A stretch of 48,455 nucleotides of DNA, taken from positions 1-48,455 of the forward strand of contig JAVHPP010000062.1 in assembly GCA_036170655.1 (NCBI GenBank), written 5' to 3'. Shown here piece after piece: positions 10,050 through 34,281 of this stretch; the stretch's first letter is position 1; every line of letters begins with the position of its first letter. The notes beneath the pieces are model-generated. The model saw nothing but the letters and a program-made list of their open reading frames with translations, did not search any database and was not told the origin of the DNA. A program made the translations under genes and the position numbers. The DNA comes from Candidatus Zixiibacteriota bacterium. GTDB taxonomy: Bacteria; Zixibacteria; MSB-5A5; WJJR01.

Positions 10050-10991
10050 GTGGGCAAAACCGCTCTCCTTTTTCCCGGCCAGGCGTCTCAGTACGTGGGC
10101 ATGGGACATGACCTGTATGACCGATTCGCTGTCGCGCGGTCGATGTACGAGACGGCCAACGACATTCTCGAATTCGATATCGCCCGCTTGTCCTTCGAGG
10201 GTCCGCCGGAGCAACTGGTCCAGACCGCCCAAACCCAACCTGCCATCTTTGTGCACTCTTGCGTTGCCTTCGAACTGGCGCGGCAGCAGGGCCTGTCTTT
10301 CGATCTTGCTGCAGGTCATTCGCTGGGCGAGTACTCAGCCCTCGTGGCCGCTGGCGTGCTTTCATTCGAAGATGCGTTGATCGCGGTGAAACAGCGTGCG
10401 CGTTTCATGCAGGATGCCTGCGAGACCAATCCCGGAACGATGGCCGCCGTGTTGGGGCTGACTTTTGATGAAGTTACCGGCATTTGCGCTCGCGCGTCCA
10501 GTCAGGGTGTTGTGGTCGCGGCCAACTACAATACCGCGAACCAAGTCGCTGTTTCCGGATCGCTCGCTGGTGTCAGAGCGGCATCCGCTTTGGCGACCGA
10601 AGCGGGTGCAAAGCGGGTGATTCCCCTGTCCGTCGGCGGTGCGTTTCATTCCCCCCTGATGCGCCCATCTCCCGAACAACTCGCTCCGGTTCTTGATCGC
10701 CTGAGCTTCCAGACGGCTCACACGCCGGTCATCCTGAATGTTACAGCGCGACCGGCCACTGATCCGGTTGAGATCAAGAAACGCCTGATCGAACAACTCA
10801 CCGCGCCTGTCATGTGGTATCCGACCGTTCTCTTTATGAAAGACATGGGAGTCAGCCGTGCCATCGAGGTTGGCCCCAAGAAAGTGCTGTGCGGGCTGGT
10901 CAAGGGAGCGCTGACCGAAGCCCGGTTGGAGTCGCTGGATACCGCAGCGGATTTCGCCGCCATGTTCAAGATGGAGGCCGTGGGTCAGTAA
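10050..10991 (+). CDS. fabD: Malonyl-CoA:ACP transacylase
   Basis: FPGQASQ, GHSLGEY, GAFHS. Confidence 0.97.
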   Translation: MGKTALLFPGQASQYVGMGHDLYDRFAVARSMYETANDILEFDIARLSFEGPPEQLVQTAQTQPAIFVHSCVAFELARQQGLSFDLAAGHSLGEYSALVAAGVLSFEDALIAVKQRARFMQDACETNPGTMAAVLGLTFDEVTGICARASSQGVVVAANYNTANQVAVSGSLAGVRAASALATEAGAKRVIPLSVGGAFHSPLMRPSPEQLAPVLDRLSFQTAHTPVILNVTARPATDPVEIKKRLIEQLTAPVMWYPTVLFMKDMGVSRAIEVGPKKVLCGLVKGALTEARLESLDTAADFAAMFKMEAVGQ

Positions 10992-11000
10992 AAGGATTTG

Positions 11001-11807
11001 ATGATGCCCAGCGATACAGAGCCAGTCATCCATTCTGTGTCGGCGTCCCCTGATCAGGATCAGAAGATCGCGGTCTCGCGTGTGGCGCTCGTCACCGGCG
11101 GGGCCAAGGGGATCGGCGCCGCGATCGCCGTACGGCTGGCGTGTGAGGGTCATCGTATCGCCATCGTGGGACGCGATCAGGCGGCTTTGGACCGTCAGAC
11201 CGGCGTGCTGCGTGATCTGGGGCGGACAGTGATTGGTGTCGCCTCCGATCTCGCTTCTCCGGACGCCGCCGACATCATCGCCCGGGCGGTGGAAAACCAA
11301 CTGGGGCCGGTCGAGATCCTCGTGAACAACGCGGGGATCACGCGCGACGGGTTGTTTGTGCGGATGAGTCTCGAAGATTTCAATCAAGTCCTCGCGGTCG
11401 ATCTGACCGCGGCGTTCACGCTCAGCAAACGTGTGGCGCGCGGCATGATGAAGGCCCGCTGGGGACGGATCGTCAATATTAGTTCCGTGGTGGCGCAGAT
11501 GGGCAATGTTGGCCAGGCGAACTATGTCTCCGCCAAGGCCGGATTGCTCGGCCTGACCAAGGCGCTTGCCCTCGAATTGGCCCCCCGGCAAGTCACGGTC
11601 AATGCGATTGCCCCCGGTTTCATCGAAACAGATATGACCGCAGCCCTGCCGGCCGAGGTCTTGGAGAATTACAAAAGACGCATTCCCTTGGCGCGGTTTG
11701 GCGCGCCCGCCGATGTGGCCGGAGTCGTCGCCTTCCTCTGCTCCTCTGAGGCGGCCTATGTCACCGGTCAGACACTCCGCGTCGATGGCGGTATGCTTTT
11801 GGCATGA
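11001..11807 (+). CDS. fabG: 3-oxoacyl-ACP reductase
   Basis: TGGAKGIG, NNAGITRD, YVSAK, APGFIETDMT. Confidence 0.95.
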   Translation: MMPSDTEPVIHSVSASPDQDQKIAVSRVALVTGGAKGIGAAIAVRLACEGHRIAIVGRDQAALDRQTGVLRDLGRTVIGVASDLASPDAADIIARAVENQLGPVEILVNNAGITRDGLFVRMSLEDFNQVLAVDLTAAFTLSKRVARGMMKARWGRIVNISSVVAQMGNVGQANYVSAKAGLLGLTKALALELAPRQVTVNAIAPGFIETDMTAALPAEVLENYKRRIPLARFGAPADVAGVVAFLCSSEAAYVTGQTLRVDGGMLLA

Positions 11808-11955
11808 ACTCCTGTGGCCCCGAAACGACCTGTCGGGCGGTAGGAATGGCTCGTTAATTTTGGTTGCACCTGCCGCTTTTTTGTGGTTTACTCGCTGTGC
11901 CCCAAGCATGGGGACGAGGTGAACATCCACTCTTTTCGGTTTGGGAGGGTAATCC

Positions 11956-12198
11956 ATGTCGTCTATTGCGGAACGTGTCAAGAAAATCATTGTTGATCAA
12001 TTGGGGGTGAATGCGGAACAGGTCACCGAACAGGCGTCATTTGTCGACGATCTGGGCGCCGATTCGCTTGATACCGTGGAATTGGTGATGGCCTTGGAAG
12101 AAGAATTCGGCCTGGAAATCCCCGACGCCGATGCGGAGAAAATCTCCACTGTCAAGTTGGCTATCGACTACATTGAGAGCAAGGGTGTAAAGTCGTAA
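11956..12198 (+). CDS. acpP: Acyl carrier protein
   Basis: [20 protein letters not shown]. Confidence 0.98.
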
Positions 12199-15566: not shown

Positions 15567-16928
15567 TTACGGTCTCGGACAGGTCTCGCTGCACGGGTTG
15601 CACGGCGTCGTGCCGCCGCCAAAGGCGTGATCTACGGCGGCTACCACGTCCAGCACATCCGTCAGGTTGTTCCCGTCAAAGTCGCACCGCTCGAGGGGAC
15701 ATCGGGGATCGGTCGCACACGTGCCGCCTCCGAACGCACGGTCGATAATGACCACCACATCCAGAACGTCGATCGAACCAGATGAATCCGGATCGCCCGC
15801 GAACGGGCAATTGCAAGTGCAATTGATAAACACCGAGACGTTGCTGCCGTACAAATTGGCCACGGCCAGATCTTGATCCCCGTCCCCGTCCAGATCGGCC
15901 GCAAAGACCGAGAACGAATTAGTGCCGGCCGCGTAGTTGACCGCCGCGGCAAACGTTCCATCCCCGTTGTTCTTCAGTACCGAGACGTTGTCGCTGCCGC
16001 CATTGGCCACCGCCAGATCCTCATTCCCATCCCCGTCGAGATCGGCCGCAACGACCGATCGAGGATTAGCGCCGACCGCGTAGTTGACCGCCGCGGCAAA
16101 CGTTCCATCCCCGTTGTTCTTCAGCACCGAGACATTGTTGCTGCCGGGATTGGCCACCGCCAAGTCGAGATCGCCGTCCCCGTCCAGATCGGCCGCAAAG
16201 ACCGAGAACGAATTAGTGCCGGCCGCGTAGTTGACCGCCGCGGCAAACGTTCCATCCCCGTTGTTCTTCAGCACCGAGACACTGTTGCTGCCGCGATTGG
16301 CCACCGCCAAGTCGAGATCGCCGTCCCCGTCCAAGTCGGCCGCAACGACAGACACGGGCGGATTTCCTGCGGTATAGCTGCCCGCGGCGGCAAAGGATCC
16401 GTCTCCGTTGTTCTTCAAGACCGTCACGTCGCCTTGGACGTTATTGGTGACCGCCAAGTCGCGATCTCCGTCTCCATCCAAGTCGGCCACACAGACCGAA
16501 GGAGTGCCATCACCTGGGGTATGGTAATAGTCCACCGGTGGGCCGAAGGTTCCGTCTCCCATGTTCTTCAGGACCGACACGCCCCCGGCGAAGATCATAT
16601 TTTCCCAAGCGACCACGAGGTCGAGATCCCCGTCCGCGTCCAGATCGGCCGCAACAACGGAAACAGCAATACCTCCTGATAGATAGCTCACCGGCGCTGC
16701 AAAGCTCCCATCCCCGTTGTTCTTCAGCACCGTGACGGTGTCGCTGGCCAGCGCCAGATCCTGATCCCCATCCCCGTCCAAATCGCCCGCGAAGACGGAG
16801 GAAGGACCCCAACCGGTCACGTAGTTGGTCGCCGCGTTGAAGCAGAACCCCTGCGCGTGAACGCTGGACAGGGGCAACAGGGCTGCAATCGAAACGAACA
16901 CGCAGGTCACAAACGATTGTAAACGCAT
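15567..16928 (-). CDS. Secreted FG-GAP/VCBS-repeat beta-propeller protein with C-terminal Cys-rich dockerin-like domain
   Basis: Signal peptide ending VHA-Q; seven ADLDGDGDxDLAVA repeats; tail CxC..GDPD..DVLDVV..CP..DFD..DVLDVV..PCNPC. Confidence 0.88.
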   Translation of the reverse strand: MRLQSFVTCVFVSIAALLPLSSVHAQGFCFNAATNYVTGWGPSSVFAGDLDGDGDQDLALASDTVTVLKNNGDGSFAAPVSYLSGGIAVSVVAADLDADGDLDLVVAWENMIFAGGVSVLKNMGDGTFGPPVDYYHTPGDGTPSVCVADLDGDGDRDLAVTNNVQGDVTVLKNNGDGSFAAAGSYTAGNPPVSVVAADLDGDGDLDLAVANRGSNSVSVLKNNGDGTFAAAVNYAAGTNSFSVFAADLDGDGDLDLAVANPGSNNVSVLKNNGDGTFAAAVNYAVGANPRSVVAADLDGDGNEDLAVANGGSDNVSVLKNNGDGTFAAAVNYAAGTNSFSVFAADLDGDGDQDLAVANLYGSNVSVFINCTCNCPFAGDPDSSGSIDVLDVVVIIDRAFGGGTCATDPRCPLERCDFDGNNLTDVLDVVAAVDHAFGGGTTPCNPCSETCPRP

Positions 16929-17113
16929 TTTCCCACCTCCCGTGGTCAGGCGGGGAGACTGACACACACAATACGAACATAGCACACCAATGGCGGTTGT
17001 CAAGGATTCTTTTTGGACCGGCCGGGGGGCGGATGTTAGGGGCGTGTTGAAGAATCCGACCGGCGGCCCATACCGTGTGATGTCACTCCCGGGAAAGGAC
17101 GAGTTGAAGAACC

Positions 17114-17189
17114 GGGCAGACAGGAGTGTCTGCCCCACTCTCTGTTCTGGAAGTCCATGTTTCTCAGTGGCGCGGACACTTGTCCGCGC
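17114..17189. repeat. Pair of REP-like hairpins
   Basis: gggcagaca-ggag-tgtctgccc and gcgcggaca-ct-tgtccgcgc. Confidence 0.55.
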
Positions 17190-17299
17190 GTCCGGAGCGC
17201 GAATGAGGGGTTCTTCGACAGGCCCGTTAGACCGGGTCCCTCAGGGGGCATCGGAACCTCAGCCACGTCGGATGCGGGCTGCCACGCGCGAATGTTCAC

Positions 17300-18235
17300 T
17301 CACGGTACAAACGTCGGCAGGTCCCGGTCCAGGCCAAAAAGCTGCCGCGCGTTCTGGCCCATGATGGCTTCGCAGGCGCGATCCGAAAGTCCGATCGACT
17401 GGAGCATTTCGAGTTGTTCGCTGAAGATCGTCCCACGCCAGCCACGGGGGAATGATCCCGAATCCGTGCCAAAGAGAAGACGCGCGGGACCAAAAACTTC
17501 CAGCGCGCGTTCGAGGACTTCCTGCATCGAATGGAACTCCGACTGGTCCTGCAGCCAGCAGTTCGATGACGACGTATCGACGTGCACATTCGGGCATTGC
17601 AGTCCCAGCCGCAATAACGCCCGCAACGTGCCGCACCCAAAGCTGGGGACGACGAAATTGACCGTGGGGAAATCCGTCGCGGCCCGGTGAAGATCGGCGG
17701 GATCGGCATAGTGCGTATCGTGCGCGTCCGGCAATCCCCACCAGCGGTGCGGCAGGATGCGCAGCGTGCCGAAGTGGACATACACAACCAGCCGGTATCG
17801 CCGTGCCAGACGGTAGATCGGGTAGACACGCTCCGATGACGCGGCAAAACGGTGCAACGAGGGATAGAGCGCAATACCGCGAAACCCCAACTCGCGGACC
17901 GCGTACTCCAGCACTTCCTCCCTCACCGAGAGAAAGGGATTGATCGTCGCGATGCCTATGAAACGCTGGGGATAGACACGCGCCGCGGCCGCGACCGACA
18001 ACTCGTCGCCCGGAATGCTCGCGAAGCTGATCAGGCGCGACACGCCGAACCGTTCCATCTCGATCGCCCATAGGTCAGCCAGGCGGACAGGGTCCTTTGG
18101 CGGCACCTGAAAACCATGCAGACGGGCGCGCTCGTCGATGAATTCATCAACGTCGCCATACTCGTGCCGTTGCTGAGTCAGCAACCGGAAGTAGTTGTAG
18201 GAGAGGAAGTGCGTGTGCGCGTCAATGATTTCCAT
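17300..18235 (-). CDS. Amidohydrolase_2 family TIM-barrel protein
   Basis: IIDAHTH, VYVHFG, NVHVDTS, LLFGTDS. Confidence 0.9.
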   Translation of the reverse strand: MEIIDAHTHFLSYNYFRLLTQQRHEYGDVDEFIDERARLHGFQVPPKDPVRLADLWAIEMERFGVSRLISFASIPGDELSVAAAARVYPQRFIGIATINPFLSVREEVLEYAVRELGFRGIALYPSLHRFAASSERVYPIYRLARRYRLVVYVHFGTLRILPHRWWGLPDAHDTHYADPADLHRAATDFPTVNFVVPSFGCGTLRALLRLGLQCPNVHVDTSSSNCWLQDQSEFHSMQEVLERALEVFGPARLLFGTDSGSFPRGWRGTIFSEQLEMLQSIGLSDRACEAIMGQNARQLFGLDRDLPTFVP

Positions 18236-18489
18236 CCCCGATGTGCCTCTCCATGCAAGAGCAAAAAAGCGCTGACGGCCCCAGACTTCCCCGGTGACCG
18301 GCAGTTGTCAGTTACGAGAGTGAAAAAAGCCCGCACAGGCGGGTGACGCAACAGCAATTTCCGGGCAGGTCGGAGTTTTGCCAGGCACGCGCATTATGAT
18401 CGGGCTCTGAGAACCTCTAACACAATGACGGCGCACGTGCAACACACGTGGGGATCAAGTCGGCTCATTCAGTGGAGCATCGATGGTTC

Positions 18490-18560
18490 GGGAGGGCAAG
18501 GCTCCTGCAGAGCGTTTTCGGGGGAGGGAAAAAAAGAGGCTCGGCAGGAGCCTCGCCCTC
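18490..18560. repeat. REP-like element, copy 1 (GGGAGGGCRAGGCTCCTGC family)
   Basis: gggagggcaaggctcctgcagagc...ggctcggcaggagcctcgccctc; second copy at 34338-34406. Confidence 0.75.
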
Positions 18561-18590
18561 ACGTTTGCGCCCCGGTCGCCCGTTCCAGCC

Positions 18591-18670
18591 GTAGGGTGGG
18601 TGCTTTGCACCCACCATCACCTAATGGAGAATCTCCACCATACTGGGTGGGTGCCGAGCACCCACCCTAC
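18591..18670. repeat. GTAG-type REP doublet
   Basis: GTAGggtgggtgctttgcacccacc...ggtgggtgccgagcacccaccCTAC. Confidence 0.75.
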
Positions 18671-18752
18671 GACTCCGTGCGGGCGCCGGGCCCCTCATGG
18701 TCCGCGCTTGTTTCTTGTTGTCGCGCTGGTTCCAGCCGCGTTCATTGCTCCT

Positions 18753-19226
18753 ATGGGCAAGCGTGCGCCGATGATCGCCGTGTGCGGCGGCGGAATTGCT
18801 GACGATGCCACCGCTGCGCTGGCCGAGGCCGTCGGCTATGAATTGGGCTGCGCCGGTGCTGTCGTTGTGTGCGGCGGACTCGGCGGCGTCATGGAACACG
18901 CCTGCGCCGGCGCCAAACGCGGCGGCGGATTGACCGTTGGGATTGTTCCTGGTACTCAGACACGGGCCGCGAACCGCTTTGTCGATGTCCCGATCGCCAG
19001 CGGCATGGCGGCCGGTCGAAATGCGGTCATTCTTCAGACCGCCGATGCGGTGATTGCGCTTCCGGGGTCGTATGGCACCCTGTCGGAAATCGCGCTGGCG
19101 TTACAGGCAGGCAAACCGGTGGCGACAATTGGGACCTGGTGTCCGATCCCTGGGGTGATCGTTTATCAGACTGCGCTGGAAGCGGTCCGGGAGACACTGC
19201 GTGCCATCCACGCAGTCGGGCAGTGA
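18753..19226 (+). CDS. TIGR00725 / LOG-like Rossmann-fold protein
   Basis: CGGLGGVMEHAC, GLTVGIVPG, GRNAVI, GSYGTLSEIA. Confidence 0.9.
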   Translation: MGKRAPMIAVCGGGIADDATAALAEAVGYELGCAGAVVVCGGLGGVMEHACAGAKRGGGLTVGIVPGTQTRAANRFVDVPIASGMAAGRNAVILQTADAVIALPGSYGTLSEIALALQAGKPVATIGTWCPIPGVIVYQTALEAVRETLRAIHAVGQ

Positions 19227-19240
19227 CAGGGGCTGGGACC

Positions 19241-19510
19241 ATGCGTCTGCGGATACGTGTCGCGGGAGTTGTTCAGGGTGTTGGTTATCGTTATTATGCG
19301 GTCCGCCGGGCGCGCGGATATGGCCTTACCGGTTGGGTGAGGAACTCTCCCGATGGCGCGGTGGAAATCGAGGCGGTGGGTCCGCCCGGGCCGTTGCAGG
19401 GATTTGTGGAGGATATGCGCATCGGCCCGCCCAGCGCCCATGTGAGCAGCATCACAGTGGACAAGTTCGATGATGAACCGCGTTACCATGATTTTGAAGT
19501 GAGGTATTAA
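19241..19510 (+). CDS. acyP: Acylphosphatase
   Basis: GVVQGVGYR, GWVRNSPDGAVE, GPPSAHV. Confidence 0.95.
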   Translation: MRLRIRVAGVVQGVGYRYYAVRRARGYGLTGWVRNSPDGAVEIEAVGPPGPLQGFVEDMRIGPPSAHVSSITVDKFDDEPRYHDFEVRY

Positions 19511-19558
19511 CGAGGTGGTTTGCGGCCACGGTCTGGCGTGGCCTGCGAAAGGACCTTC

Positions 19559-20089
19559 ATGACATTCGATTCTCTCAAGAAGAAGATCCGCAACATTCCC
19601 GACCATCCCAAGCCCGGGATCGTTTTCCGGGACATCACCACTTTGCTCCGGGATAAAGGCGCTTTCCGAGAAGTACAGAGCATCCTGTTTGAACACTACA
19701 GCAGCCATCCCATTGACTTGGTCGCCGCCATCGAAGCGCGGGGGTTCATCTTCGGCGGCGCGCTGGCCAATGCGCTTAACGTCGGCTTTGTCCCCATGCG
19801 GAAACCGGGCAAACTCCCGGCCGCGACGATGTCGGAGACTTACTCGCTCGAATATGGTCAGGATCAAATCCAGATGCACGTCGATGCGGTTGCGCCGGGC
19901 CAGAAGGTCCTCTTGATCGACGATCTTCTCGCCACCGGCGGGACATTATCTGCCGCTGCCCGGCTGGTTGAAAAGGCCGGGGGGGAAGTCTTCGGCATCG
20001 GTTGTGTGATCGAACTGGCATTTCTTCACGGACGGGAACGTCTGAAGAACTACGACGTTTTTTCCGTGGTCACCTACGAGTCAGAATGA
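19559..20089 (+). CDS. apt: Adenine phosphoribosyltransferase
   Basis: PKPGIVFRDIT, EARGF, RKPGKLP, IDDLLATGGT. Confidence 0.97.
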   Translation: MTFDSLKKKIRNIPDHPKPGIVFRDITTLLRDKGAFREVQSILFEHYSSHPIDLVAAIEARGFIFGGALANALNVGFVPMRKPGKLPAATMSETYSLEYGQDQIQMHVDAVAPGQKVLLIDDLLATGGTLSAAARLVEKAGGEVFGIGCVIELAFLHGRERLKNYDVFSVVTYESE

Positions 20090-20121
20090 CCGTATCATGA
20101 ATGCGCGATGCGTCGCGCCCT

Positions 20122-20197
20122 GCCCCCGTAGCTCAGCAATGGATAGAGCAGCGGTTTCCTAAACCGCGTGTCGGCGGTTCGACTCCGCCCGGGGGTA
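20122..20197 (+). tRNA. tRNA-Arg(CCT)
   Basis: GCCCCCG/CGGGGGT acceptor stem, GCGGT-TTCCTAA-ACCGC anticodon arm, GGTTCGACTCC; CCA not encoded. Confidence 0.95.
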
Positions 20198-20347
20198 TTT
20201 TCTCGGTCTCTCACGCACAGACGCCAATCGAGTGACACAGCCAAACGGTATCACCATCGGCAATGAAGATGAAAGTCACCCTCTGCATAATGGCCAGAAT
20301 GACATGGCAATGCCCCCCGCTCGGAGTTGTGCATTTCTGGCCCCCCG

Positions 20348-21112
20348 CTAACGTTTTCGCATCGCGCGCAGCATGCTGATGACTTGGGAGGGTTCTGCTC
20401 GATTCTTGTAATCCGCTTCGAGAAACGCGTACCGGATGACACGATCGGCGCCGATGATGTGGGTCGCCGCGAGCGGAAGTTCATTGGATTGGTCACCGTT
20501 ATGGGCGGACAGCGAAATGAATCTGCTATAGGAAGCCACAACTGGATCAGGCACTTTGTACACGATGCCGAACGCGCGCGCGACATGATTCCCCACATCA
20601 CTGAGCACTTCAAATTCCACGCCCAACTTCTCTTTCGTGGAGAGTGAACTGTCGGGAACCTCAGGACCGATCGCGACCAATTGTGCGCCCAGTTCCCTGA
20701 CCTGAGGGAGGACATCCATCCATGCCCGAAGCGTCAAGCTGCAGTACGGACACCATCCTCCCCGGTACCACACGATGATGACTGGTCCCTTTCTGAGTAA
20801 TCCCGACAGAGTCAGGGTGTCGCCCAACGGATTCTGTAAGGCAAAGTCGGGGACGGTATCACCGACGTTGAGTGCACGGTCCAAAATCCCGGATTTGCGC
20901 AGATCCGCAATCGCACTGTCGTAGAGAGCGAAAGTCTGACTCGGAGCCCGGCGCGCGGAACGAGCCTTCAGCGAGTCCAATTTGGGCTGGAGCAGTGGAA
21001 TCGACTTTTGCGTCGAATCGATTGTGAGGCGCGCTTGCGCCCACGCCGACGGTGCCGCAAGGAACACTGTCACCGTCAAGGTAACTGCCTGAGTCCATGC
21101 GGGAATATGCAT
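20348..21112 (-). CDS. Exported peroxiredoxin-like (AhpC/TSA, PRXL2-type) protein
   Basis: Signal peptide (AWA-Q), YRGGWCPYC, LSDVGN, LPLAATHII, DYKNRAEP. Confidence 0.9.
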   Translation of the reverse strand: MHIPAWTQAVTLTVTVFLAAPSAWAQARLTIDSTQKSIPLLQPKLDSLKARSARRAPSQTFALYDSAIADLRKSGILDRALNVGDTVPDFALQNPLGDTLTLSGLLRKGPVIIVWYRGGWCPYCSLTLRAWMDVLPQVRELGAQLVAIGPEVPDSSLSTKEKLGVEFEVLSDVGNHVARAFGIVYKVPDPVVASYSRFISLSAHNGDQSNELPLAATHIIGADRVIRYAFLEADYKNRAEPSQVISMLRAMRKR

Positions 21113-21195
21113 CGTGTCTCCTCTCCGGCAAGTCCGCCGGCCGGATATCTCGCATCAACTGGCGTTTGTCCACTTTGTTCCCCCTATGAAGAAGA

Positions 21196-21209
21196 TCCGC
21201 CCGGGGGTA
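21196..21209 (+). repeat. attR-like duplication of the tRNA-Arg 3' end
   Basis: TCCGCCCGGGGGTA is identical to 20184-20197. Confidence 0.75.
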
Positions 21210-21211
21210 CT

Positions 21212-21538
21212 CTATGGTTGCTTCGGCCTGAATCCGTAGCAGCCCCAAGCCAGCACATAGCAGAAGAACCCGGCCAGGATAACCGAGTTGAATCCGTACG
21301 CCATCGCCATGCCGACTGCTCCCACCGATCCGAGGACCGACGCAGCGCCATTGAGACCCAATGCCCATGGAACGGCGGTATGATCCTCGATTCCCAGACG
21401 CGTAATGCCCAGAGGAAACGGATGACCCATCAGGAATCCCAGCGGGGACAGCGCCAGCAGGCTGATAGCGATGCGTACTGCCAGAGGAAGAAACAGAGTT
21501 GCGCGAAAGAGGACTGGAAGGAGCGCCAGCTCGATTCC
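21212..21538 (-). pseudogene. 5'-truncated remnant of a spermidine-synthase-like/MFS-fused membrane protein (last TM helices only)
   Basis: Reads ...RIAISLLALSPLGFLMGHPFPLG...VPWALGLNGAASVLGS..., the C-terminal motif of that family. An in-frame stop lies shortly upstream and no N-terminal part is present. Confidence 0.65.
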
Positions 21539-21779
21539 GACACAAGCCGTCTCACGGCCTCGCAGTTGGTCACTGCGCCCCTCGGAGCGAAGGGACGTGA
21601 TTCCGTAGTCAGGCTACCCCGTTTCTCCGGTCGGCACAAGAAAATACTGGATGGTCGTTTACGGACACGGCGGCAAGCTCACGGGCGATCCCGGTGGACT
21701 GGGATCGCCCGTGCGCAGAGCACACAGTCTGCGCGATTTGCGGGTAATCTCTATTGGCAAGATGTCGAACGCCACGACC

Positions 21780-23477
21780 CTATCGTGGGCACTGGCTGCC
21801 GAGCATGCACGGATTGCATGGCCCCGGCCCATTGTTGAAAGCGCCGTCAACGAATGCGACGACGTCGAGCACGTCCACGGCGCAATCACAGTTAAAATCG
21901 GACCGCCCAACATGCGGACATGATGGATCGACGACGATGGCGCCGCCGTTGAAAGCGGCGTCAACCACATCGACGACGTCCAACACGTCGAGCGCGCTAT
22001 CTCCGTTGGGATCTCCCTGGAAGGCGCAATTGCATCCCGTCACGACCGTGATCCGGATGGTCGCCGTGTTGGAGTTGGCATTTCCGTCACTTGCAACATA
22101 CTTGATCGAATCCGGTCCTTGGTAACCGAGCGCGGGCGTATAGGTGAAACTGCCGGTGGCGGGGCTAAAGCCCGACACGCTCCCGTGAAATGGCCCGCTG
22201 GTCTGCGTCACCGTCCAACTCACGTTGTCCACATCGGTGACCGGCATGGCGCCGATGGCAGACGGCGTGTTGACCATCACAGTGGTAACGACGTCCGCCG
22301 CGACCGGAGCATCATTGACCGGTGTGATGATGAAGAACACGGTACCCACGCCGGAAATGGTTTGGCCGTCGGTCACGCGAAATGTCAGCGTGTCGCCGCC
22401 GTTGTAGTTCAGCGAAGGAGAGTAGTTGAATGCGCCGTTGGAGGAGTTCAGCCCGCTGGCGACTCCATGATGGGGGCCACTGAGAATCGAGTACGTCAGC
22501 AAACCGCCATCCGGATCGTATGCCTGGAGTTGCGACGCCACGGCCACGTCCTCGAGTGTCGTCACCATCGTGTCACGAGCAACGGGGATTCCGTTGACGG
22601 AAATTGCCACAACCTCGGTATCGGCGTTGGCGCCATCCGACGCGATGAACCGGACATTGAACACGCCAAACTGACTGGCCATCGGTGAAAAAGTGAAAAT
22701 CCCAGTGCCGTTGGCGTTCGCGGTAAAGGTGGCATTGGCCGGTACATCTTCCGCTGACAATGCGGGGAAAGTCCCGTTGCAATCGGTGGCAGACACGTTG
22801 AAGTTCAGCGTCGAGCCCGCATTCAGTGACTTGGGCCCGATCGGGTCAAGTGTCGGGGCCGTGCCGTTCGGCAGCCCCACAAATCCCGTTGTCCCATCGT
22901 TCTTCGTCGGCGAATTCGCCATCACAACGAAATCTGCGGCGTTGTTTCTCGTCAAATCGTTAAATGTTACGCGCGTTAGCGACAGGAATCCATCGCAGGG
23001 GAGAGGCGCCGCCGGAAGACCAAAGCCTGTGTTGCTCCCCGTGTAGTTGCCATAGGCCACGGCATCGACGACCCCCCCGAGGTCCGTGCCGAATTCGATC
23101 CGCCCATTGTGCAGAGAAATCGTACCACTGGGAATAATAAAGTCGGGCGTGAACCCCAGAATATCGGCCACACCCTGTGTGGCAAGCAGGATCGTCTCGT
23201 TGTTGTCTAATGCCGGAAAAGACGACGTAAAATCGAAGACCAGATTCGTCGACGCCCCGCTGGCATTCTTGGCATTCACCCGGGTCGGTGCCAGATTCGT
23301 CTGGAAATTTGCGATGGCTTGCAACTCGACGAACTGGAGTGTCCCGTCGCTATTCGTGAAAACTTCGCTGACCATGTTCAAATGGAACGTACTCGGGTCA
23401 GCCATTGTTGTGGCGTTGCCCCCCGTCACCATTAGACCGATCAATACCCCCAAACAACCCCGGCGCGCATGCATCAT
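21780..23477 (-). CDS. Secreted Ig-like/cadherin-like (Big_9) repeat protein with C-terminal Cys-rich dockerin-like domain
   Basis: Signal peptide; N-domain FHLNMVSEVFTNSDGTLQFVEL; three Ig-like modules (TPVNDAPVA, FTYTP..Y.G.D); DVLDVV twice in the tail. Confidence 0.85.
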   Translation of the reverse strand: MMHARRGCLGVLIGLMVTGGNATTMADPSTFHLNMVSEVFTNSDGTLQFVELQAIANFQTNLAPTRVNAKNASGASTNLVFDFTSSFPALDNNETILLATQGVADILGFTPDFIIPSGTISLHNGRIEFGTDLGGVVDAVAYGNYTGSNTGFGLPAAPLPCDGFLSLTRVTFNDLTRNNAADFVVMANSPTKNDGTTGFVGLPNGTAPTLDPIGPKSLNAGSTLNFNVSATDCNGTFPALSAEDVPANATFTANANGTGIFTFSPMASQFGVFNVRFIASDGANADTEVVAISVNGIPVARDTMVTTLEDVAVASQLQAYDPDGGLLTYSILSGPHHGVASGLNSSNGAFNYSPSLNYNGGDTLTFRVTDGQTISGVGTVFFIITPVNDAPVAADVVTTVMVNTPSAIGAMPVTDVDNVSWTVTQTSGPFHGSVSGFSPATGSFTYTPALGYQGPDSIKYVASDGNANSNTATIRITVVTGCNCAFQGDPNGDSALDVLDVVDVVDAAFNGGAIVVDPSCPHVGRSDFNCDCAVDVLDVVAFVDGAFNNGPGPCNPCMLGSQCPR

Positions 23478-23857
23478 AAGACCTCCCCGGCTTCCTCACA
23501 GAAGACCCGAATTGTGGAAATCGTTCTTCAATTCGCCAATTGGCAGATTCACTTGAATGACAACCCCGATCGCACGGGTGTACCTCCCCAATGCAGCATA
23601 CGGCCGAAAAGCTCCTCATCAAGCCAAATAGCGACTGTTTTACTCCTGTTTATCGGCACCCTTTACCCTTGACCGGCCCGCCCTCAACGGCAAAACGGCG
23701 TCAAGAAATACGTCTCACTGCCTTGACAACCCGCTGTTATTTGCGATCTTATAAGAGGTTGCGGCGTAACGATCACCGTTGCAACCGTGGGATATGTTCT
23801 TACTGGTCTCTGTGTTTGCATCGGATTCGCAGAGGTCGCCAATCGGAGGGCAATCAG

Positions 23858-25567
23858 ATGAAACGGCATGTCATCTTCACATCGGTCGCGCTGGCTTTGA
23901 CCATCTTAGGCGTTAGTCCGGCTTTGGCTGTTAATTCGCTGGTGGTCGAGTCTAAGACAGTAAATAAGGGACAGGCCGGGGTCATGATCGCGGTCCGGCT
24001 GACCAATGATGTCCCGCTCCGCAGTCTTGTTATTCCGCTGATCCTTCGCGAGGTCACCGGCGCGGCTTTCGTCACCGCGCTCCAGCCTCTTTATGGAGAA
24101 CGTCTGCCGACGGCCTCAGGTTCCCCACTGGCGGATATTTCAATACGGAATCAATACGCCGACGAGAACGGCAGTTGTAAGGCGGGCCAGCCCGGCGGAA
24201 TGGGTGCGCTCACTTTCAATGACGGCGCCAGCCATCCCGTGGCCGCCGCGCCAGAGGGCGTGATGTTCGTCCGCAGCAAGATCATCGGGGCCAATCTGCC
24301 GGCCGGGATCGACACGGTGGGATCGATGTCCCTTCTGGTCGATGTCACAACAGCCCAGGGTGTCTTCGAGATCGACACAATCTGCACGAATCCGGCCAAT
24401 CATATTCTTTTGGTTCGCGACAATCCGCCGACCAATACATCCTATGTCCCGGATTTCACCAAGGGTATCATCAACGTGGGCCATCCGCCGGTCGCCCGCG
24501 ACACTTCCTGGTCGACCAATGAGGACGTCCCGCGGCCTGTCACCTACTTGCCGGCGTCAGACCCCGATCTTGACCCCCTCACGTTTAACATTAGCTCAGG
24601 CCCGGAACATGGTGTCATTACATTGTTTATGCCAGCGAATGGAGCGTTTACATACACGCCCTCGCTGAACTATAACGGTCCTGATTCCATTCGTTTCACC
24701 GCCAGTGATGGGGGCTTCTTCTCGAATGTCGGAACTGTACGGATCACGGTGAAACCCGTCAATGATGCCCCGGCAGCGCGCGACACAGTCGTCACAACGG
24801 CCGAAGACACGCCCGTTAATGCTTTGTTCCAAGCGGACGACATCGACGGCGACGCGGTAACGTTCACCAAACTCAGCGGACCATTCCACGGCACGTTCTC
24901 GGGGTTCGATGCCGCCACTGGAGCTTTCACGTATACGCCGGCGTCTGACTACAATGGAGCGGATTCCATCACGTTCCGGGCAAAGGATGGTGTCTTGAAC
25001 TCCAACACGGCGACAGTGCGAATCACGGTTACCCCAGTGAATGATGCACCTGTTGCCCGCGACACGCTGGTCGTGACCGGCAAGGATGTCCCAGCCACGG
25101 CGCGTTTCCAGTCATTCGACATCGATGGTGGACCGCCGGTCTACGCGCGCCTGACGGGACCGTTCAACGGGACCTTCACGGGTTTTGATCCATCAACCGG
25201 AGTCTTCACCTACACCCCGAGTCCGGGGTATGCCGGACACGATTCGATCACATTCGACGTCAGCGATGGACTGGCAACATCGAATGTCGGGACCGTCAGA
25301 ATCAATGTCACGACAACCTTCTGCCGTTGTGACCATGTCGAGGATCCAAACATCGACGGCGCCAAAGACGTGCTGGATGTTGTCGATGTGATCGACGTGG
25401 TTTTTGACGGTCTGCCGTTCCCAATCTACCCGCCGTGCCGGTTCGCCTATGAGGACGTGAACTGCGACTGCTCGATTGATGTTCTCGACGTCGTCAAGAT
25501 CATCGCCGTGGTGTTCGAGAACGACCCGTCGCCACCGTGCGATCTCTGTGCAGCAATCTGCCGCTGA
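23858..25567 (+). CDS. Secreted protein: cohesin-like domain + 3 Big_9/cadherin-like repeats + Cys-rich dockerin-like domain
   Basis: GGAGG RBS; signal peptide (ALA-V); beta-rich domain ending PDFTKGIINV; three PVARD...FTYTP..Y.G.DSI.F repeats; DVLDVV twice in the tail. Confidence 0.82.
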   Translation: MKRHVIFTSVALALTILGVSPALAVNSLVVESKTVNKGQAGVMIAVRLTNDVPLRSLVIPLILREVTGAAFVTALQPLYGERLPTASGSPLADISIRNQYADENGSCKAGQPGGMGALTFNDGASHPVAAAPEGVMFVRSKIIGANLPAGIDTVGSMSLLVDVTTAQGVFEIDTICTNPANHILLVRDNPPTNTSYVPDFTKGIINVGHPPVARDTSWSTNEDVPRPVTYLPASDPDLDPLTFNISSGPEHGVITLFMPANGAFTYTPSLNYNGPDSIRFTASDGGFFSNVGTVRITVKPVNDAPAARDTVVTTAEDTPVNALFQADDIDGDAVTFTKLSGPFHGTFSGFDAATGAFTYTPASDYNGADSITFRAKDGVLNSNTATVRITVTPVNDAPVARDTLVVTGKDVPATARFQSFDIDGGPPVYARLTGPFNGTFTGFDPSTGVFTYTPSPGYAGHDSITFDVSDGLATSNVGTVRINVTTTFCRCDHVEDPNIDGAKDVLDVVDVIDVVFDGLPFPIYPPCRFAYEDVNCDCSIDVLDVVKIIAVVFENDPSPPCDLCAAICR

Positions 25568-25934
25568 TCGCATATCGAAGACCCCTGCTTCGGGGCTGCC
25601 TTGCAGCCCCCCCGAACGGCCCAAGCGCGATTCTTGGGCCGCTTGGCATCCACGCGCTGGGCAAGTAACGCGCGAAGCCCAAAATGACCGGGAATAGAAG
25701 CCCAGCCCAAGGGTATTGAGGAAGGCGGTTGACGGTCGACACGCGTGTTTCTGTGTCCGTGTCGCCAGTCAAAGGGAATAATCAGTTGACAAGGGCAGGG
25801 CAGAGGGATAATTTTTGCGCTTTGTCTTTCCGGGGCAACGATCCGGGAAGGCAATCCGGGGGACCGCAGCCGGGTGGGATTGAGTAGATCCGGCTGAGAC
25901 ATGGTTGGAACGATTGAGGGAGAGGACGGACTCG

Positions 25935-27434
25935 ATGAGAAGCAAAGCGGTGGGAACCTGTCTGACCGGCATCGCGGTCGTTTTCTCGTTGCTAACTGGT
26001 TCGGCATCGGCTCAGGGCGTGTTGGGCAACTCCTTCCAGAACTGGAACTTCTTAGGCAGTGGCGCCCGTGCACGCGGGATGGGGGGCGCGTTCTTAGGGA
26101 TTTCCGATGACGCGAACGCCGCAACTTGGAATCCCGCCGGCTTGATCTACAACGAAGGTGTTTCGGTGACAATGAACTATAGCCTTGCGCATGTCGGCCT
26201 GGATCTGGACAGCCGATCCGTCAGCAAGGGCCTCTCCAGTCTGTCGGCGGCGACCTTCCTGGCGCCATTGACTCTGCGCGACCATGAGTTCCTGCTCTCG
26301 GCCTATTACAACCGTTTGCAGGATGTCTACGCCCAGAGCGAGTTTAATGTCGACAACAACACGCTGACGCACGTCGGAGTGCCGTTCAGTGCACACTACC
26401 TGATGACGGGAAACCTGGCGGTGGTCGGCGGCGGTTTTGGAACCGTGATCAAGGGGGGGCTGAGCCTTGGCGGTACACTCAATATCGCCACGGGCGACGG
26501 AGTCGAACTCGACAAGATTCATCTCGACTCGAATCGTTACAGCGGCGCCATTTCCCAGGACGTCTATTGGAACGACAAGTCCGACCTCGACTATTCTGGT
26601 GTGAATGTGAATGTGGGTGTTCTCTACAAGGCCGATCGCTGGTCGGCCGGAATGATCTTCAGTCCGCGTTGGACACTCACCCAGAAGCTCCACTACGAAT
26701 CTTACACCGAAAAAATCGAAACGCAGATTCCTGTGATTTCCCCAACCCTCGTCCCCGGTCCCCACGGGACCGACCGTCAGATTGTGATACCGTACACCGT
26801 GGGTCTTGGAGGGGCCTATCGTTTGACCGACAATGTCCGCTTGGCGGCTGACTATCAGTTCCGTGCCTTCAAGCGAGAGGGCAGTTACGGTTTTCAGGCC
26901 AGCGCCATCTCGCCGGATACGTCCTTTGAGACCCTGCCGACCAAGTGGTATAACTTGCATCAGGTCCGCGTGGGCGCCGAGTATATGCGTGAAACCCGGT
27001 GGGGAACACTGCCGTTTCGCGTTGGTCTGCGAAACGAGCCGATGTTGATCGGCAACACCACGGGTTCAACGGTACAGTTTGAAGGACGTGACAGTAAGGA
27101 GCGCCCGGTACTGACCAAAGATGCCCAGTACCTTTTTCCGCTGACATTTGCCGGAGCGGTGGGCAGCCAGGTGAATGGCTGGACACTCGCCTTTGGGTCG
27201 GGCGTTTATTGGTCCCAGATCCATCTCGACATGGCGTTGGAATTCACCGGCTACTCCTATGATGAGAAGGCGGGGTTGGTCAGGATGGTCCGCGCCTGCC
27301 ACGACTGCGAGCCCGGGCCGAAGGTCTTCACCGATGAATGGGGTAAACGGTTCGAGGAAGACTACGGCACTTTTAGCCGCACGTACAAAGACAACCGTGT
27401 CCGGCTGTCGTTGAATTTCACCGGGTATTTCTAA
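25935..27434 (+). CDS. Outer-membrane beta-barrel, FadL/PorV-like
   Basis: Signal peptide; GSGARARGMGGAFLGISDDANAATWNPAGL hatch motif; alternating beta-strands; terminal Phe (FTGYF). Confidence 0.85.
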   Translation: MRSKAVGTCLTGIAVVFSLLTGSASAQGVLGNSFQNWNFLGSGARARGMGGAFLGISDDANAATWNPAGLIYNEGVSVTMNYSLAHVGLDLDSRSVSKGLSSLSAATFLAPLTLRDHEFLLSAYYNRLQDVYAQSEFNVDNNTLTHVGVPFSAHYLMTGNLAVVGGGFGTVIKGGLSLGGTLNIATGDGVELDKIHLDSNRYSGAISQDVYWNDKSDLDYSGVNVNVGVLYKADRWSAGMIFSPRWTLTQKLHYESYTEKIETQIPVISPTLVPGPHGTDRQIVIPYTVGLGGAYRLTDNVRLAADYQFRAFKREGSYGFQASAISPDTSFETLPTKWYNLHQVRVGAEYMRETRWGTLPFRVGLRNEPMLIGNTTGSTVQFEGRDSKERPVLTKDAQYLFPLTFAGAVGSQVNGWTLAFGSGVYWSQIHLDMALEFTGYSYDEKAGLVRMVRACHDCEPGPKVFTDEWGKRFEEDYGTFSRTYKDNRVRLSLNFTGYF

Positions 27435-32366: not shown

Positions 32367-33962
32367 TTACTTCTTCGCAGGACGGCGCAAGAAGACGTGC
32401 ATCGAAGGCCAGTTATACCCTTCATTCCTGCTGTCCTTACTGGCGCTGATCTCACGGAATGTCAGAGGAAGACTGTAAGCCGGTGGCGAAGACTCCCCGC
32501 TCCGCGCTGCACAATCGGTGTTGATGGTTGTATCACGGTCTTCCACGACCTCACCGGAGAACATAATCAGTTGTTTGAATGGTTCTGCGGGAGCCCAGTC
32601 ATCGATTGGTTCCAAGGTAATCCAAACTTTGACCCGGCGTCGTGATTGCACCATCGCAAGCAAGTCCAATGGTGAGGGCAGGCCCGATGGCAGGTTGTGG
32701 ATGAAGTCCTCGCCGGGGACATTGAAATGAGGATCGTAGTTGCTCATGTCGGTGTACGGATTGCTCCGATCGCGCCCATCCTTGTCTGTGAACCGTCCCA
32801 ATGACAGCGGCTTGGTGAGGCCGGTTGAACTGTCAAAGACGACCCATGCCTCATATTCCAACCCGAGGAGAGGATCGACCGGTGCAATCCCGGGCAGACT
32901 GCTGGCGACAGTCGTGTCACCCCAGATAGTCGTGAAAGACCGCTTGAACAAAATGGTATCGGAAAAGGGACAATAGCGGCACACCGTGTCACTTGCGCAA
33001 TGTGTGCTCTCCGGATAATCAATCCTGAGGTAACAGGTGTCGATGATTTGTCCCAAGGTATCACGGTTATAGTCGATGTAGCCAACCGTCTGTCCGCCGC
33101 GAATAATGCGTTCCCGGTCGGCGCCGAGCGGTATCCGTGGACCTGTGCGGCCAACGTGCTGGGGCACACCATTGCGGAACACGATATCGGGCTCCCGGTC
33201 GGCGAAAACCGTGCCATAATTCGAAAAGGAACTATCGAGGTGATCCGGGAAATACCAGATGAAGTAGTCAATGCCTTTGTTATGACGGCCCAACAGTGTT
33301 CCCTTGGTGACGCAGGAAGGATGAAGGCACGGCCCCACGGTGTCGAGGATTTCCTTGTCTTTGGCGATCGGCTTCGCAAACCAGACCCCCATGCCCTCGG
33401 AGTTGGACCGCCAGCATGCGCCCGGGACGTCGTGCACGAGCGACTGAGCCACCAGACTGAACTCGTTGGACGCCAGATTTACCAAGCCAGTGGGCACTCT
33501 GAAGTCGGCTTCCAGATTCATCCTCGTAAATTGATCGATGTCCGCAAACATGATGACCGGACCATCAACCTGGCTTGGGTTGGGGTCGCTGAGTGGCTCA
33601 ATGGACACAATAAGCCCTTGGTGATCCAGAAGGTTGATTCCGAGGTCGAGCCCGGGATCAATTGTCAGCGGCAGCGTATCGCCATGTTCATCCAGAGCGA
33701 AGAAGTACTCTGTGTTCCACTGGAACCGCTGCAAAGGAAAGACCGCCACTGGACGAGCATTTGAAGCGGTATCGTACGCCCAAAATTGATAAATGTGCCC
33801 CGGCGGAGCGGGTAGAAGTCCGTAAGGAGGACGATCGTTGGAATTCGGAATAATGCGAATGACCGAGAAATACTCCGGCTGAGGTTCCGGCCCTTTGATC
33901 AAACAACCGGCCAACAACAACGCAAGCATGATGGCCCCCACCCGGGTGGTTGTGCGTGTCAT
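32367..33962 (-). CDS. Lipoprotein with two RskA-C-like motif sets
   Basis: Lipobox LAGC; YQFWA...VSIEP..D.NP and YEAWV...PLSLGRF...PGEDF...ITLEP.DD.AP.EPF. Confidence 0.7.
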   Translation of the reverse strand: MTRTTTRVGAIMLALLLAGCLIKGPEPQPEYFSVIRIIPNSNDRPPYGLLPAPPGHIYQFWAYDTASNARPVAVFPLQRFQWNTEYFFALDEHGDTLPLTIDPGLDLGINLLDHQGLIVSIEPLSDPNPSQVDGPVIMFADIDQFTRMNLEADFRVPTGLVNLASNEFSLVAQSLVHDVPGACWRSNSEGMGVWFAKPIAKDKEILDTVGPCLHPSCVTKGTLLGRHNKGIDYFIWYFPDHLDSSFSNYGTVFADREPDIVFRNGVPQHVGRTGPRIPLGADRERIIRGGQTVGYIDYNRDTLGQIIDTCYLRIDYPESTHCASDTVCRYCPFSDTILFKRSFTTIWGDTTVASSLPGIAPVDPLLGLEYEAWVVFDSSTGLTKPLSLGRFTDKDGRDRSNPYTDMSNYDPHFNVPGEDFIHNLPSGLPSPLDLLAMVQSRRRVKVWITLEPIDDWAPAEPFKQLIMFSGEVVEDRDTTINTDCAARSGESSPPAYSLPLTFREISASKDSRNEGYNWPSMHVFLRRPAKK

Positions 33963-34281
33963 CGAGTTTTGTCCTCCATGGATATGACCTTGTCGGGCCG
34001 TCGCTTGGCGGCGCTCCAGAGACGCCGATTATAAGCCCTTGTGTTGCACGCGTCAAGCGAAAAGCGGGCCTTTTGGCTTAGGATGCGCACCGCCTTTCAT
34101 CTCCCATTACCCATTGCGGGCCAGATTATTCCATCGAATGTGCGGAGTTTGCCAAATTGCAGCATGGGACCCCTGAAATGTCAAACTCTCGCCTCCGAGA
34201 ATTACGCGCAAGGGGCTGAAAGCCCCTTGCCTGAACCTCGGGAACTCGTTGGGCATTCGCGTCGGCTCCGCTCTTAGACCT

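Follow-up and report, generated by a model that had tools for sequence, protein, structure and literature searches.

Three exported proteins end in related tails

We analyzed a stretch of DNA of 48,455 nucleotides (the window; contig JAVHPP010000062.1 of assembly GCA_036170655.1, from a Candidatus Zixiibacteriota bacterium) and found that three of its genes, here called A, B and C, encode proteins with homologous, cysteine-rich C-terminal tails. Gene A (15567..16928, minus strand) lies within an open reading frame (ORF) at 15567-17138, has a likely start at the ATG at 16928, and encodes ~453 amino acids. Gene B (21780..23477, minus strand) encodes 565 amino acids. Gene C (23858..25567, plus strand) lies within an ORF at 23591-25567, has a likely start at the ATG at 23858, and encodes 569 amino acids. 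The tails, ~85 amino acids each, are encoded at 15567..15821 (A, minus strand), 21780..22034 (B, minus strand) and 25322..25567 (C, plus strand). An alignment of the three has 27 invariant columns out of 86. By pairwise blastp, tails A and B are 54% identical (E 5e-18), B and C 49% (E 7e-12), and A and C 36% (E 4e-4). A preliminary description of this DNA, made from the sequence alone, had proposed that the tails are homologous, and the alignment agrees with this.

Each tail contains two repeats, and all six repeats have the pattern D-x-(N/D)-x-(D/S/N)-x-x-x-D-V-L-D-V-V, after which comes a stretch that looks helical and ends in Phe. As had been noted before, Val-Leu is present at loop positions 10 and 11 in all six. 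The tails are rich in cysteine: tail A has nine and ends in CPRP, tail B has eight, and tail C has eight and ends in ICR.

All three proteins have signal-peptide-like N-termini, as judged by reading the sequences and by a crude hydrophobicity rule made for this analysis. This is in keeping with the signal peptides of the preliminary description. The N-terminus of protein A, scored by the same rule, is MRLQSFVTCVFVSIAALLPLSSVHAQG. The body of protein A consists of seven FG-GAP/VCBS repeats (Pfam FG-GAP_3, E 1.5e-69, 7 stretches). In protein B the signal-peptide-like N-terminus is followed by ~290 amino acids, three Big_9/cadherin repeats (tandem-95, E 4.7e-31) and the tail. Residues 1-290 of protein B had no Pfam family over its cut-off and matched only He_PIG, at E 0.012. 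In protein C the signal-peptide-like N-terminus is followed by a domain with a predicted cohesin fold (23933..24502, plus strand; based on an AlphaFold2 model and Foldseek, see below), three Big_9/cadherin-like "tandem-95" repeats (24503..25321, plus strand, bounds approximate; Big_9 E 7.9e-48 in 3 stretches, NF012211 E 2.5e-43) and the tail.

The bodies of the three proteins had been described as different. That is correct for protein A, which is unrelated to B and C in its body, but not for B compared to C, as the Big_9 repeats of these two are 43-53% identical to each other. Scans with Pfam and NCBIfam found no family of carbohydrate-active enzymes (CAZymes) in A, B or C, consistent with what had been proposed.

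The tails are divergent dockerin modules

Based on profile homology and predicted fold, the tails are divergent type-I dockerin modules that belong to a subfamily with an added cysteine frame. The window tails are assigned to this subfamily because of their homology to paralogues in the same genome, the profile of the family, and the predicted fold. Taken alone, they are barely visible to Pfam Dockerin_1 (PF00404): tails A and B had no match at E ≤ 1, and tail C matched at E 0.8 with 10.4 bits, relative to a gathering cut-off of 22.9.

The paralogues are more readily recognized. We built a hidden Markov model (HMM) from the tails and iterated it over stop-to-stop ORFs of the genome (2.6 Mb). 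It found 39 ORFs; the E values for tails A and C were 3.8e-40 and 1.0e-40. Of these ORFs, we aligned the 29 whose loci had been retrieved, and Dockerin_1 matched 23 of the 29 at E ≤ 1, with a best E of 1.3e-8. Over the whole genome PF00404 matched 29 places at E ≤ 1 and 13 over the cut-off, and 12 of the 13 were within the 39 tail ORFs. That is, an existing family covers paralogues of the window tails, while the window tails themselves fall below its cut-off. We therefore regard them as a divergent subfamily and not as a new tag. In a comparison of the 29-tail profile with the sequences in the PDB, there were 25 matches at E ≤ 1 (best 5lxv_B, E 3.6e-4), and 21 of these were dockerin-bearing chains. 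Two of the other four were guanylate-cyclase-activating proteins, one was a mitochondrial exchanger, and one was a further EF-hand-type chain.

The predicted fold points in the same direction. An AlphaFold2 model of tail B, made with the 29-row alignment, had a predicted local distance difference test score (pLDDT) of 89.2 and a predicted template modelling score (pTM) of 0.79, with helices at residues 21-33 and 59-71. Foldseek searches of the PDB with this model returned 44 rows at E ≤ 10. Dockerins made up 43 of the 44, with probabilities up to 1.00, and comparisons to type-I dockerins gave template modelling scores of 0.70-0.80 (normalised to the target) and a best E of 1.2e-2. Thus, the dockerin architecture that had been recognized by eye is supported both by the sequence profile and by the predicted fold.

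The loops of the genome's copies are also those of a calcium-binding module. Of the 36 first loops, 18 had the ligand pattern D-N-D-D-D at positions 1, 3, 5, 9 and 12, as did 23 of the 41 second loops; counting D-N-D-N-D as well, the numbers were 22 of 36 and 30 of 41. Val-Leu was present at positions 10 and 11 in 24 of 36 first loops and 28 of 41 second loops. Judging from the sequences, it is reasonable to propose that the three window tails, having the same Val-Leu pair, would bind the same partner.

Two other assignments were considered and rejected. Tail A, and neither of the other two, matched the NCBIfam family thiazolyl_B (E 2.7e-4; 20.8 bits, below the cut-off of 30), which would indicate a Cys-rich peptide precursor. 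There was also a sub-threshold NCBIfam match of the tails to acyl carrier protein. We treated both as effects of composition.

Dockerin tails are abundant and attached to diverse exported proteins

The preliminary description had placed the tail on three proteins. This was right for A, B and C but was far too low as a total for the genome, given the 39 ORFs found with the HMM. In 35 of the 39, the domain ends no more than 15 amino acids before the stop codon. The four exceptions were C183, in which the domain is N-terminal and directly follows the signal peptide, and C141, C41 and C140, in which it is internal. In C41 and C140 the dockerin is followed by a match to Por_Secre_tail (PF18962), the C-terminal domain of type IX secretion system (T9SS) substrates. 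A signal-peptide-like start was present in ~29 of the 39 ORFs by our own crude rule, and at least four of the remainder are cut by the ends of contigs.

The genome also contains dockerins that the tail HMM missed. C11 (G000:C11:1226-1858) has a Dockerin_1 match over the cut-off followed by a type IX tail. C121 (G000:C121:932-1810) has a weak Dockerin_1 match (E 0.6, 12 bits), also followed by a type IX tail. Because C11 and C121 lie outside the 39, the genome has at least 40 dockerins.

The proteins that carry the tail are varied. By Pfam, nine of the 39 are peptidases (M36, five S8, M1, M14 and M23). Others contain propellers of the sortilin/BNR, BNR_2, NHL, YncE-like and FG-GAP kinds, or Big_9/cadherin, fn3 or cupredoxin domains, and many are small proteins without a family. 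There were no glycoside-hydrolase catalytic families among the 39 at the Pfam thresholds used. A non-cellulosomal cargo had been anticipated, and the peptidases, propellers and adhesins found here fit that view.

The cysteine frame defines braced and unbraced tails

We found two forms of the tail in the genome. The braced form, present in 22 of the 39 ORFs, has a CxC at its N-terminal end, a DPxCP within a long linker, and a PCxPC at its C-terminal end, in some cases with CPR after it, for a total of 4-10 cysteines. The unbraced form, present in the other 17, is shorter and lacks the CxC; its commonest number of cysteines is two (9 of 17). Two copies have no cysteine, and both are among the four that are not C-terminal. 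The PF00404 cut-off was passed by 4 of the 22 braced ORFs compared to 8 of the 17 unbraced ORFs, indicating that the braced form is linked with escape from annotation.

Cysteines in the frame tend to be present or absent together. We measured co-occurrence in 176 unique domains from this genome and from relatives in the database, with columns numbered according to the domain HMM. The second Cys of CxC co-occurred with the Cys in the linker (columns 7-43, phi 0.80), and the Cys of "NCD" in loop 2 with the first Cys of PCxPC (columns 52-76, phi 0.73). Columns 9-15 had a phi of 0.82. A lower phi, of 0.42, was obtained for columns 5-79, which hold the first Cys of CxC and the final one of PCxPC. 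The number of cysteines was even in 16 of the 22 braced tails. The co-occurring pairs are likely to be disulfides that form after export and tie both ends and the linker of the module to its core. These results accord with the earlier proposal that the frame is an addition to the classical module.

To look at the history of the frame, we made a FastTree phylogeny of the two repeat cores alone, with the columns of the cysteine frame masked. The tree is weak, as it is based on 51 columns. The braced state required 20 changes on this tree, compared to a mean of 58.6 (minimum 48) in 200 shuffles of the labels. Therefore, braced forms cluster, although this does not establish a single clade.

A gene between A and B (window 20348-21112, minus strand) encodes a 254-amino-acid thioredoxin-fold protein of the AhpC/TSA-Redoxin type, with a signal-peptide-like N-terminus and the motif WCPYC. 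The position of a periplasmic thiol-disulfide oxidoreductase beside genes for Cys-rich exported proteins may be relevant. Alternatively, it may be a coincidence.

Cohesins are found on type IX substrates, and one is predicted in protein C

The dockerins of cellulosomes bind cohesins, and we searched the genome for these. The Pfam Cohesin family (PF00963) matched six places at E ≤ 1, four at E ≤ 1e-3, and three over the cut-off. The ORFs with PF00963 matches were C41, C88, C115 and C43, and all four end in matches to Por_Secre_tail; among them, only the match in C88 passes the protein-level cut-off of that family (27 bits). C41 contains Big_9, Cohesin (43.6 bits), Dockerin_1 (24.3 bits) and Por_Secre_tail. 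C88 (1,955 amino acids) contains a beta-helix, a cohesin and Por_Secre_tail, and C115 (978 amino acids) and C43 (2,023 amino acids) each have a PF00963 match and a Por_Secre_tail match. Thus the three cohesin modules over the Pfam cut-off are on proteins that end in T9SS C-terminal domains. We counted 25 matches to Por_Secre_tail in the genome (E ≤ 0.01), which lie in ORFs other than those of the tails or, in C41 and C140, after the dockerin. One SprA translocon and three secretins are also encoded.

The region at 23930-24478 of the window had been named as a possible partner of the tails. This region corresponds to the N-terminal domain of protein C (23933-24502), which had no Pfam match at E ≤ 1. 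A profile of its family compared to PDB sequences found no cohesin, and gave chance rows of pyrophosphatase. A cluster in the ESM Atlas scored 0.89 for this domain, and 13% of the members of that cluster carry Cohesin, which we take as a lead. An AlphaFold2 model based on 13 rows was all-beta (pLDDT 71.5, pTM 0.71). In Foldseek, the model gave 41 rows at E ≤ 1e-3, with a best match to 4ums (E 4.5e-7), and all of the rows listed to rank 49 were cohesins. The N-terminal domain of protein C is thus predicted, on the strength of this model, to have a cohesin beta-sandwich fold that was missed by every sequence method tried, and its nomination as a partner gains from this prediction.

The N-terminal domain of protein C has four paralogues in the genome, for a total of five modules. 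Two of these, in C45 and C85, are in proteins that consist of the domain and a type IX tail, a layout that is that of a single-cohesin surface anchor. The layout of protein C itself resembles that of an adaptor scaffoldin, because it has a cohesin fold, spacer repeats and a dockerin.

Gene order and distribution suggest a link between tails and cohesins

In its own genome (G000:C88:1955-9413), two small genes lie after the gene for C88, and their products (251 and 258 amino acids) both end in a braced tail. We found orthologues of C88, of 1,750-1,850 amino acids, in five other genomes of the family. The gene immediately after the C88-type cohesin-T9SS gene encoded a protein of 246-313 amino acids ending in a braced tail at all five loci that include downstream DNA, and these represent three genera. 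The sixth locus ends at the edge of a contig.

Tails were widespread among relatives. Matches at E ≤ 1e-3 were present in 33 of 41 genomes (including the genome analyzed here), with 27-129 matches in each positive genome. In a sample of the phylum there was a match at E ≤ 1e-8 in 92 of 101 genomes, with at most 54 candidates scored per genome. PF00963 matches were present in 32 of the 33 tail-positive genomes, and also in 4 of the 8 that were tail-negative. The single tail-positive genome without PF00963 is 74% complete.

The cohesin-fold family of protein C is more restricted. It was present in 19 of the 41 genomes, including all 14 of the family of the host (f1), which have 8-23 copies each. 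It was also found in the sister family f2 (3 of 3 genomes) and in f6 (1 of 2), and in none of the remaining 22. In the phylum sample, the best-scoring braced tails lie in f1 and f2. Four proteins of ~300 amino acids, from relatives in three genera (loci G003:C18, G003:C5, G007:C8 and G004:C4), consist of a signal peptide, a cohesin fold of the protein C type, and a braced tail, with nothing else. Positions 10 and 11 are Val-Phe in the proteins from G003 and G007 and are neither Val-Phe nor Val-Leu in that from G004.

We also searched a library of 1.84 billion protein cluster representatives with the braced-tail profile. The matches numbered 17,568 at E ≤ 1e-3 and fell to 2,080 at E ≤ 1e-10 and to 29 at E ≤ 1e-30. 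The number of representatives that match at E ≤ 1e-3 does not support the narrow lineage specificity that had been suggested. The best 150 representatives included 137 new proteins. In 113 of these, the last copy of the tail was within 15 residues of the end, and 85 of their 170 full-length domains had the frame of CxC plus the linker Cys. Among the best representatives, the commonest pair at positions 10 and 11 was Val-Phe, with 88 compared to 12 for Val-Leu in a count of patterns. Some metagenomic proteins (P0129, P0132, P0133, P0140 and others) have 11-17 tandem stretches of braced tail and would be multi-dockerin proteins.

For naming, we used a search for related loci that gave eight confirmed matches. 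These were in metagenome-assembled genomes of Zixiibacteriota (44-52% identity), one metagenome-assembled genome labelled Acidobacteriota, and Neomarinimicrobiota (36-37%). The named relatives are metagenome-assembled genomes of Zixibacteria, and one of them, P0076, is called "dockerin type I repeat-containing protein" by NCBI.

Neighboring genes

The gene directly downstream of C (25905-27434, plus strand) encodes a protein of 509 amino acids with a signal-peptide-like start and no Pfam match at 1e-5. Its matches to BamG (51 bits; cut-off 250) and PorV/PorQ (48 bits; cut-off 90; only residues 51-94, close to the N-terminus) fell below threshold. The protein may be a beta-barrel of the outer membrane, of either the type IX or the beta-barrel assembly machinery (BAM) kind. 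Two other ORFs in the window, at 10365-11996 (minus strand; 544 amino acids) and 32370-34028 (minus strand; 553 amino acids), had no Pfam match at 1e-5 and no NCBIfam match at 0.01. No RNA sequencing run was listed as covering window 21780-25567; DNA of that stretch was present in five runs from two studies.

A proposed model for docking at the cell surface, and alternatives

We think it probable that the tails are dockerin modules, with 8-9 added cysteines in the window proteins, that dock Sec-exported proteins onto cohesins at the cell surface. Cohesin binding, calcium dependence, the disulfides, and the surface location of the tail proteins are all things that we infer. In this model, tail-bearing proteins would cross the inner membrane by Sec. 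In the periplasm the tail would fold around two calcium ions, and periplasmic oxidation would make disulfides between the second Cys of CxC and the linker Cys, between the "NCD" Cys of loop 2 and the first Cys of PCxPC, and between the first Cys of CxC and the final Cys of PCxPC. Such a set of bonds would make up a covalent version of the N-to-C "intramolecular clasp" of other dockerins. The folded proteins would then reach the surface; three secretin genes are present. There, the two helices with the same Val-Leu pair would plug into cohesins on T9SS-anchored scaffoldins or on adaptors like protein C. Such docking would give a complex on the cell surface that is specialized in adhesion and in breaking down protein, and not in cellulose.

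Several results weigh against this model of docking. The window tails miss the PF00404 cut-off of 22.9 bits, and no Foldseek row for the tail model had E ≤ 1e-3, although this is usual for such a small domain. The model of the N-terminal domain of protein C has middling confidence (pLDDT 71.5), and hhalign comparison of the family of this domain to the Pfam cohesins of the genome gave a probability of 0.1. Tails outnumber cohesin-fold modules by ~4:1 (39 compared to four PF00963 matches at E ≤ 1e-3 plus five modules of the protein C type), and relatives with 27-129 tails have 1-10 PF00963 matches. The co-occurrence of tails and cohesins is loose, because half of the eight tail-negative genomes have cohesins, and related genomes are not independent. 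The proposed pairing of cysteines derives from co-occurrence only, and 7 of the 22 braced tails, including tail A, have an odd number of cysteines. In addition, the model requires a folded, Sec-exported protein to cross a diderm's outer membrane, by a route that the model does not supply.

Some of these results would be expected if the tail, in spite of a dockerin fold, does not bind cohesin. In that case it could be a module, stabilized by calcium and disulfides, that binds an outer-membrane glycan, an exopolymer, a mineral or the surface of prey, or that merely stabilizes exported proteins, with the few cohesins serving a subset of the dockerins. Tails do outnumber cohesins many-fold, cohesins occur in four of eight tail-negative relatives, and one tail-positive genome (74% complete) has none. 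However, an excess of dockerins over cohesins is normal in cellulosome producers, as is well established (PMC2930009). Furthermore, positions 10 and 11, which contact cohesin in solved complexes, are here Val-Leu and are the most conserved part of the module; a tail gene follows the cohesin-T9SS gene in a conserved order; and the families with the best-scoring braced tails are also those in which the lineage-restricted cohesin fold mainly occurs. The ~300-amino-acid fusions of cohesin fold and braced tail are also hard to explain without cohesin-dockerin logic. On balance, we regard this alternative as unlikely, though it is the most serious of those considered.

It is considerably less likely that the tail is a C-terminal signal for export or sorting that is read like the T9SS C-terminal domain or PEP-CTERM and is possibly then removed. 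The preliminary description had allowed for a sorting tag, and the domain is indeed at the extreme C-terminus in most of the tail ORFs (35 of 39) and library representatives (113 of 137), and is attached to many unrelated secreted bodies. A sorting signal would also account for the otherwise unexplained route across the outer membrane. But in 4 of 39 ORFs the domain lies elsewhere (N-terminal in C183, internal in the other three, C141, C41 and C140), and in C41 and C140 it precedes a Por_Secre_tail match, so the recognized C-terminal signal is a different domain. The three window tails, and the proteins that carry them, have no PF18962 match at E ≤ 1. Tandem arrays of 11-17 copies, as in the library proteins, would be superfluous for a sorting signal, and the fold and the calcium loops are those of a binding module. 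Because the domain can be internal or N-terminal, can precede Por_Secre_tail, and can form long tandem arrays, a sorting role is improbable. We give almost no weight to the notion that the tails resemble dockerins by chance or are Cys-rich peptide precursors of the thiazolyl or lanthipeptide type. Tail A has the weak thiazolyl_B match described above, but the tails are on proteins of 450-570 amino acids with signal-peptide-like N-termini, and chance is excluded by the pairwise blastp E values and the 39 paralogues.

Docking of the tails onto surface cohesins thus remains the reading that we prefer. A bolder extension of it, which we consider doubtful, is that the braced dockerin has co-evolved with the cohesin-fold family of protein C, each being the cognate partner of the other. 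Proteins with both modules (protein C and the ~300-amino-acid proteins) would daisy-chain into disulfide-hardened scaffolds on the outer membrane, holding dozens of peptidases and adhesins, to make a Gram-negative "proteolysome" with a new class of cohesin. Almost all occurrences of this cohesin-fold family are in one order of Zixibacteria, the order that also contains the best-scoring braced tails.

Significance and comparison with known systems

The Cys-framed dockerin is among the most expanded modules of a small diderm genome: 39 copies are present in 2.6 Mb, and relatives have as many as 129 matches. The plugs are on proteases and adhesins, not on cellulases, and the sockets are on type IX secretion substrates. 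If the proposed binding is true, then one recognition code would organize much of the secreted proteome of Zixibacteria at the cell surface, and standard annotation would overlook an entire class of sockets together with most of the plugs (18 of 22 braced tails are below the Pfam cut-off). In that case, a dockerin locked by disulfides and its cohesin would also be a candidate for a robust affinity pair in protein engineering. In our opinion the most useful new point is the predicted cohesin fold of protein C, which is invisible to sequence searches and has a distribution that largely coincides with that of the best braced tails.

Cohesin-dockerin assembly is textbook biology of Gram-positive cellulose degraders, and the known non-cellulolytic systems include amylosomes and mucinolysomes. 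The tails resemble the type-I dockerins of clostridial and ruminococcal cellulosomes (PF00404; 1ohz_B, 2vn5_B, 5lxv_B, 4fl4 and 5nrk_B) in having two tandem repeats (~22 residues each) of a 12-residue calcium loop, with D/N at positions 1, 3, 5, 9 and 12, and a helix, in the size of the core (~70 residues), in being usually C-terminal on secreted proteins, and in the recognition pair, which is nearly the same in the two repeats; such similarity permits a dual binding mode in solved systems (2vn5). The two kinds of module differ in several respects. The tails of Zixibacteria add the CxC, a longer DPxCP linker and the PCxPC (plus CPR), with 4-10 cysteines; their recognition pair is the hydrophobic Val-Leu; and 18 of the 22 braced modules are below the Pfam cut-off. 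The cargo consists of peptidases, propellers and adhesins, without glycoside hydrolases, and we infer that the host is not a Firmicute but a diderm from the Fibrobacterota-Chlorobiota-Bacteroidota group.

Cellulosome anchoring proteins are held on the Gram-positive wall by S-layer homology (SLH) domains or by sortase. Protein C, C45 and C85 can be compared to the single-cohesin anchoring proteins and the adaptor scaffoldins (cohesin plus dockerin) of cellulosomes, represented by OlpA and OlpC of C. thermocellum (3ul4 and 4dh2) and ScaC of R. flavefaciens (5lxv). Sequence identities are 9-17%, and PF00963 does not detect the cohesin-fold domain of protein C. Unlike in OlpA, OlpC and ScaC, anchoring here would use a T9SS C-terminal domain on the outer membrane. 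The T9SS C-terminal sorting domain is a beta-sandwich. Like the tails, this domain (PF18962) is ~80 amino acids long and is found at the C-terminus of dozens of unrelated secreted proteins of the same genome. The tails, however, belong to another sequence family, and where both domains are in one ORF, as in two cases, the dockerin is upstream.

The ends of the braced tails also have a precedent. Slutzki et al. 2013 (PMC3821032) describe, as a general theme among dockerins, an "intramolecular clasp" in which the N- and C-termini touch and stabilize the calcium-bound fold, and CxC and PCxPC sit at the positions of the clasp. The clasps described there are non-covalent (Trp-Pro stacking and others), whereas the clasp in the braced tails would be one or more disulfides.

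In a search of the full-text literature, we found no paper that joins "Zixibacteria" or "Zixiibacteriota" with "dockerin", or "Zixibacteria" with "cohesin". The general idea of a surface cohesin-dockerin system that uses the T9SS is already published, for Cloacimonadota (PMC8542988). That work (Williams et al. 2021) inferred a cellulosome-like complex in "Ca. Stygibacter" purely in silico. As in Zixibacteria, the host belongs to an uncultured phylum, enzymes with signal peptides (including an S8 peptidase) have C-terminal dockerins, and a cohesin-bearing protein has a T9SS-type C-terminal domain for attachment to the surface. The cargo of "Ca. Stygibacter" includes glycoside hydrolases of families GH18 and GH57, and its single scaffoldin, of 3,755 amino acids, has tandem cohesins and carbohydrate-binding modules (CBMs). 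In Zixibacteria, by contrast, we found no CAZyme cargo, and the cohesins are single modules distributed over several T9SS proteins and adaptors. The dockerins of Zixibacteria are also far more numerous, and they have a cysteine frame, a feature that does not appear in the sections of PMC8542988 that were consulted.

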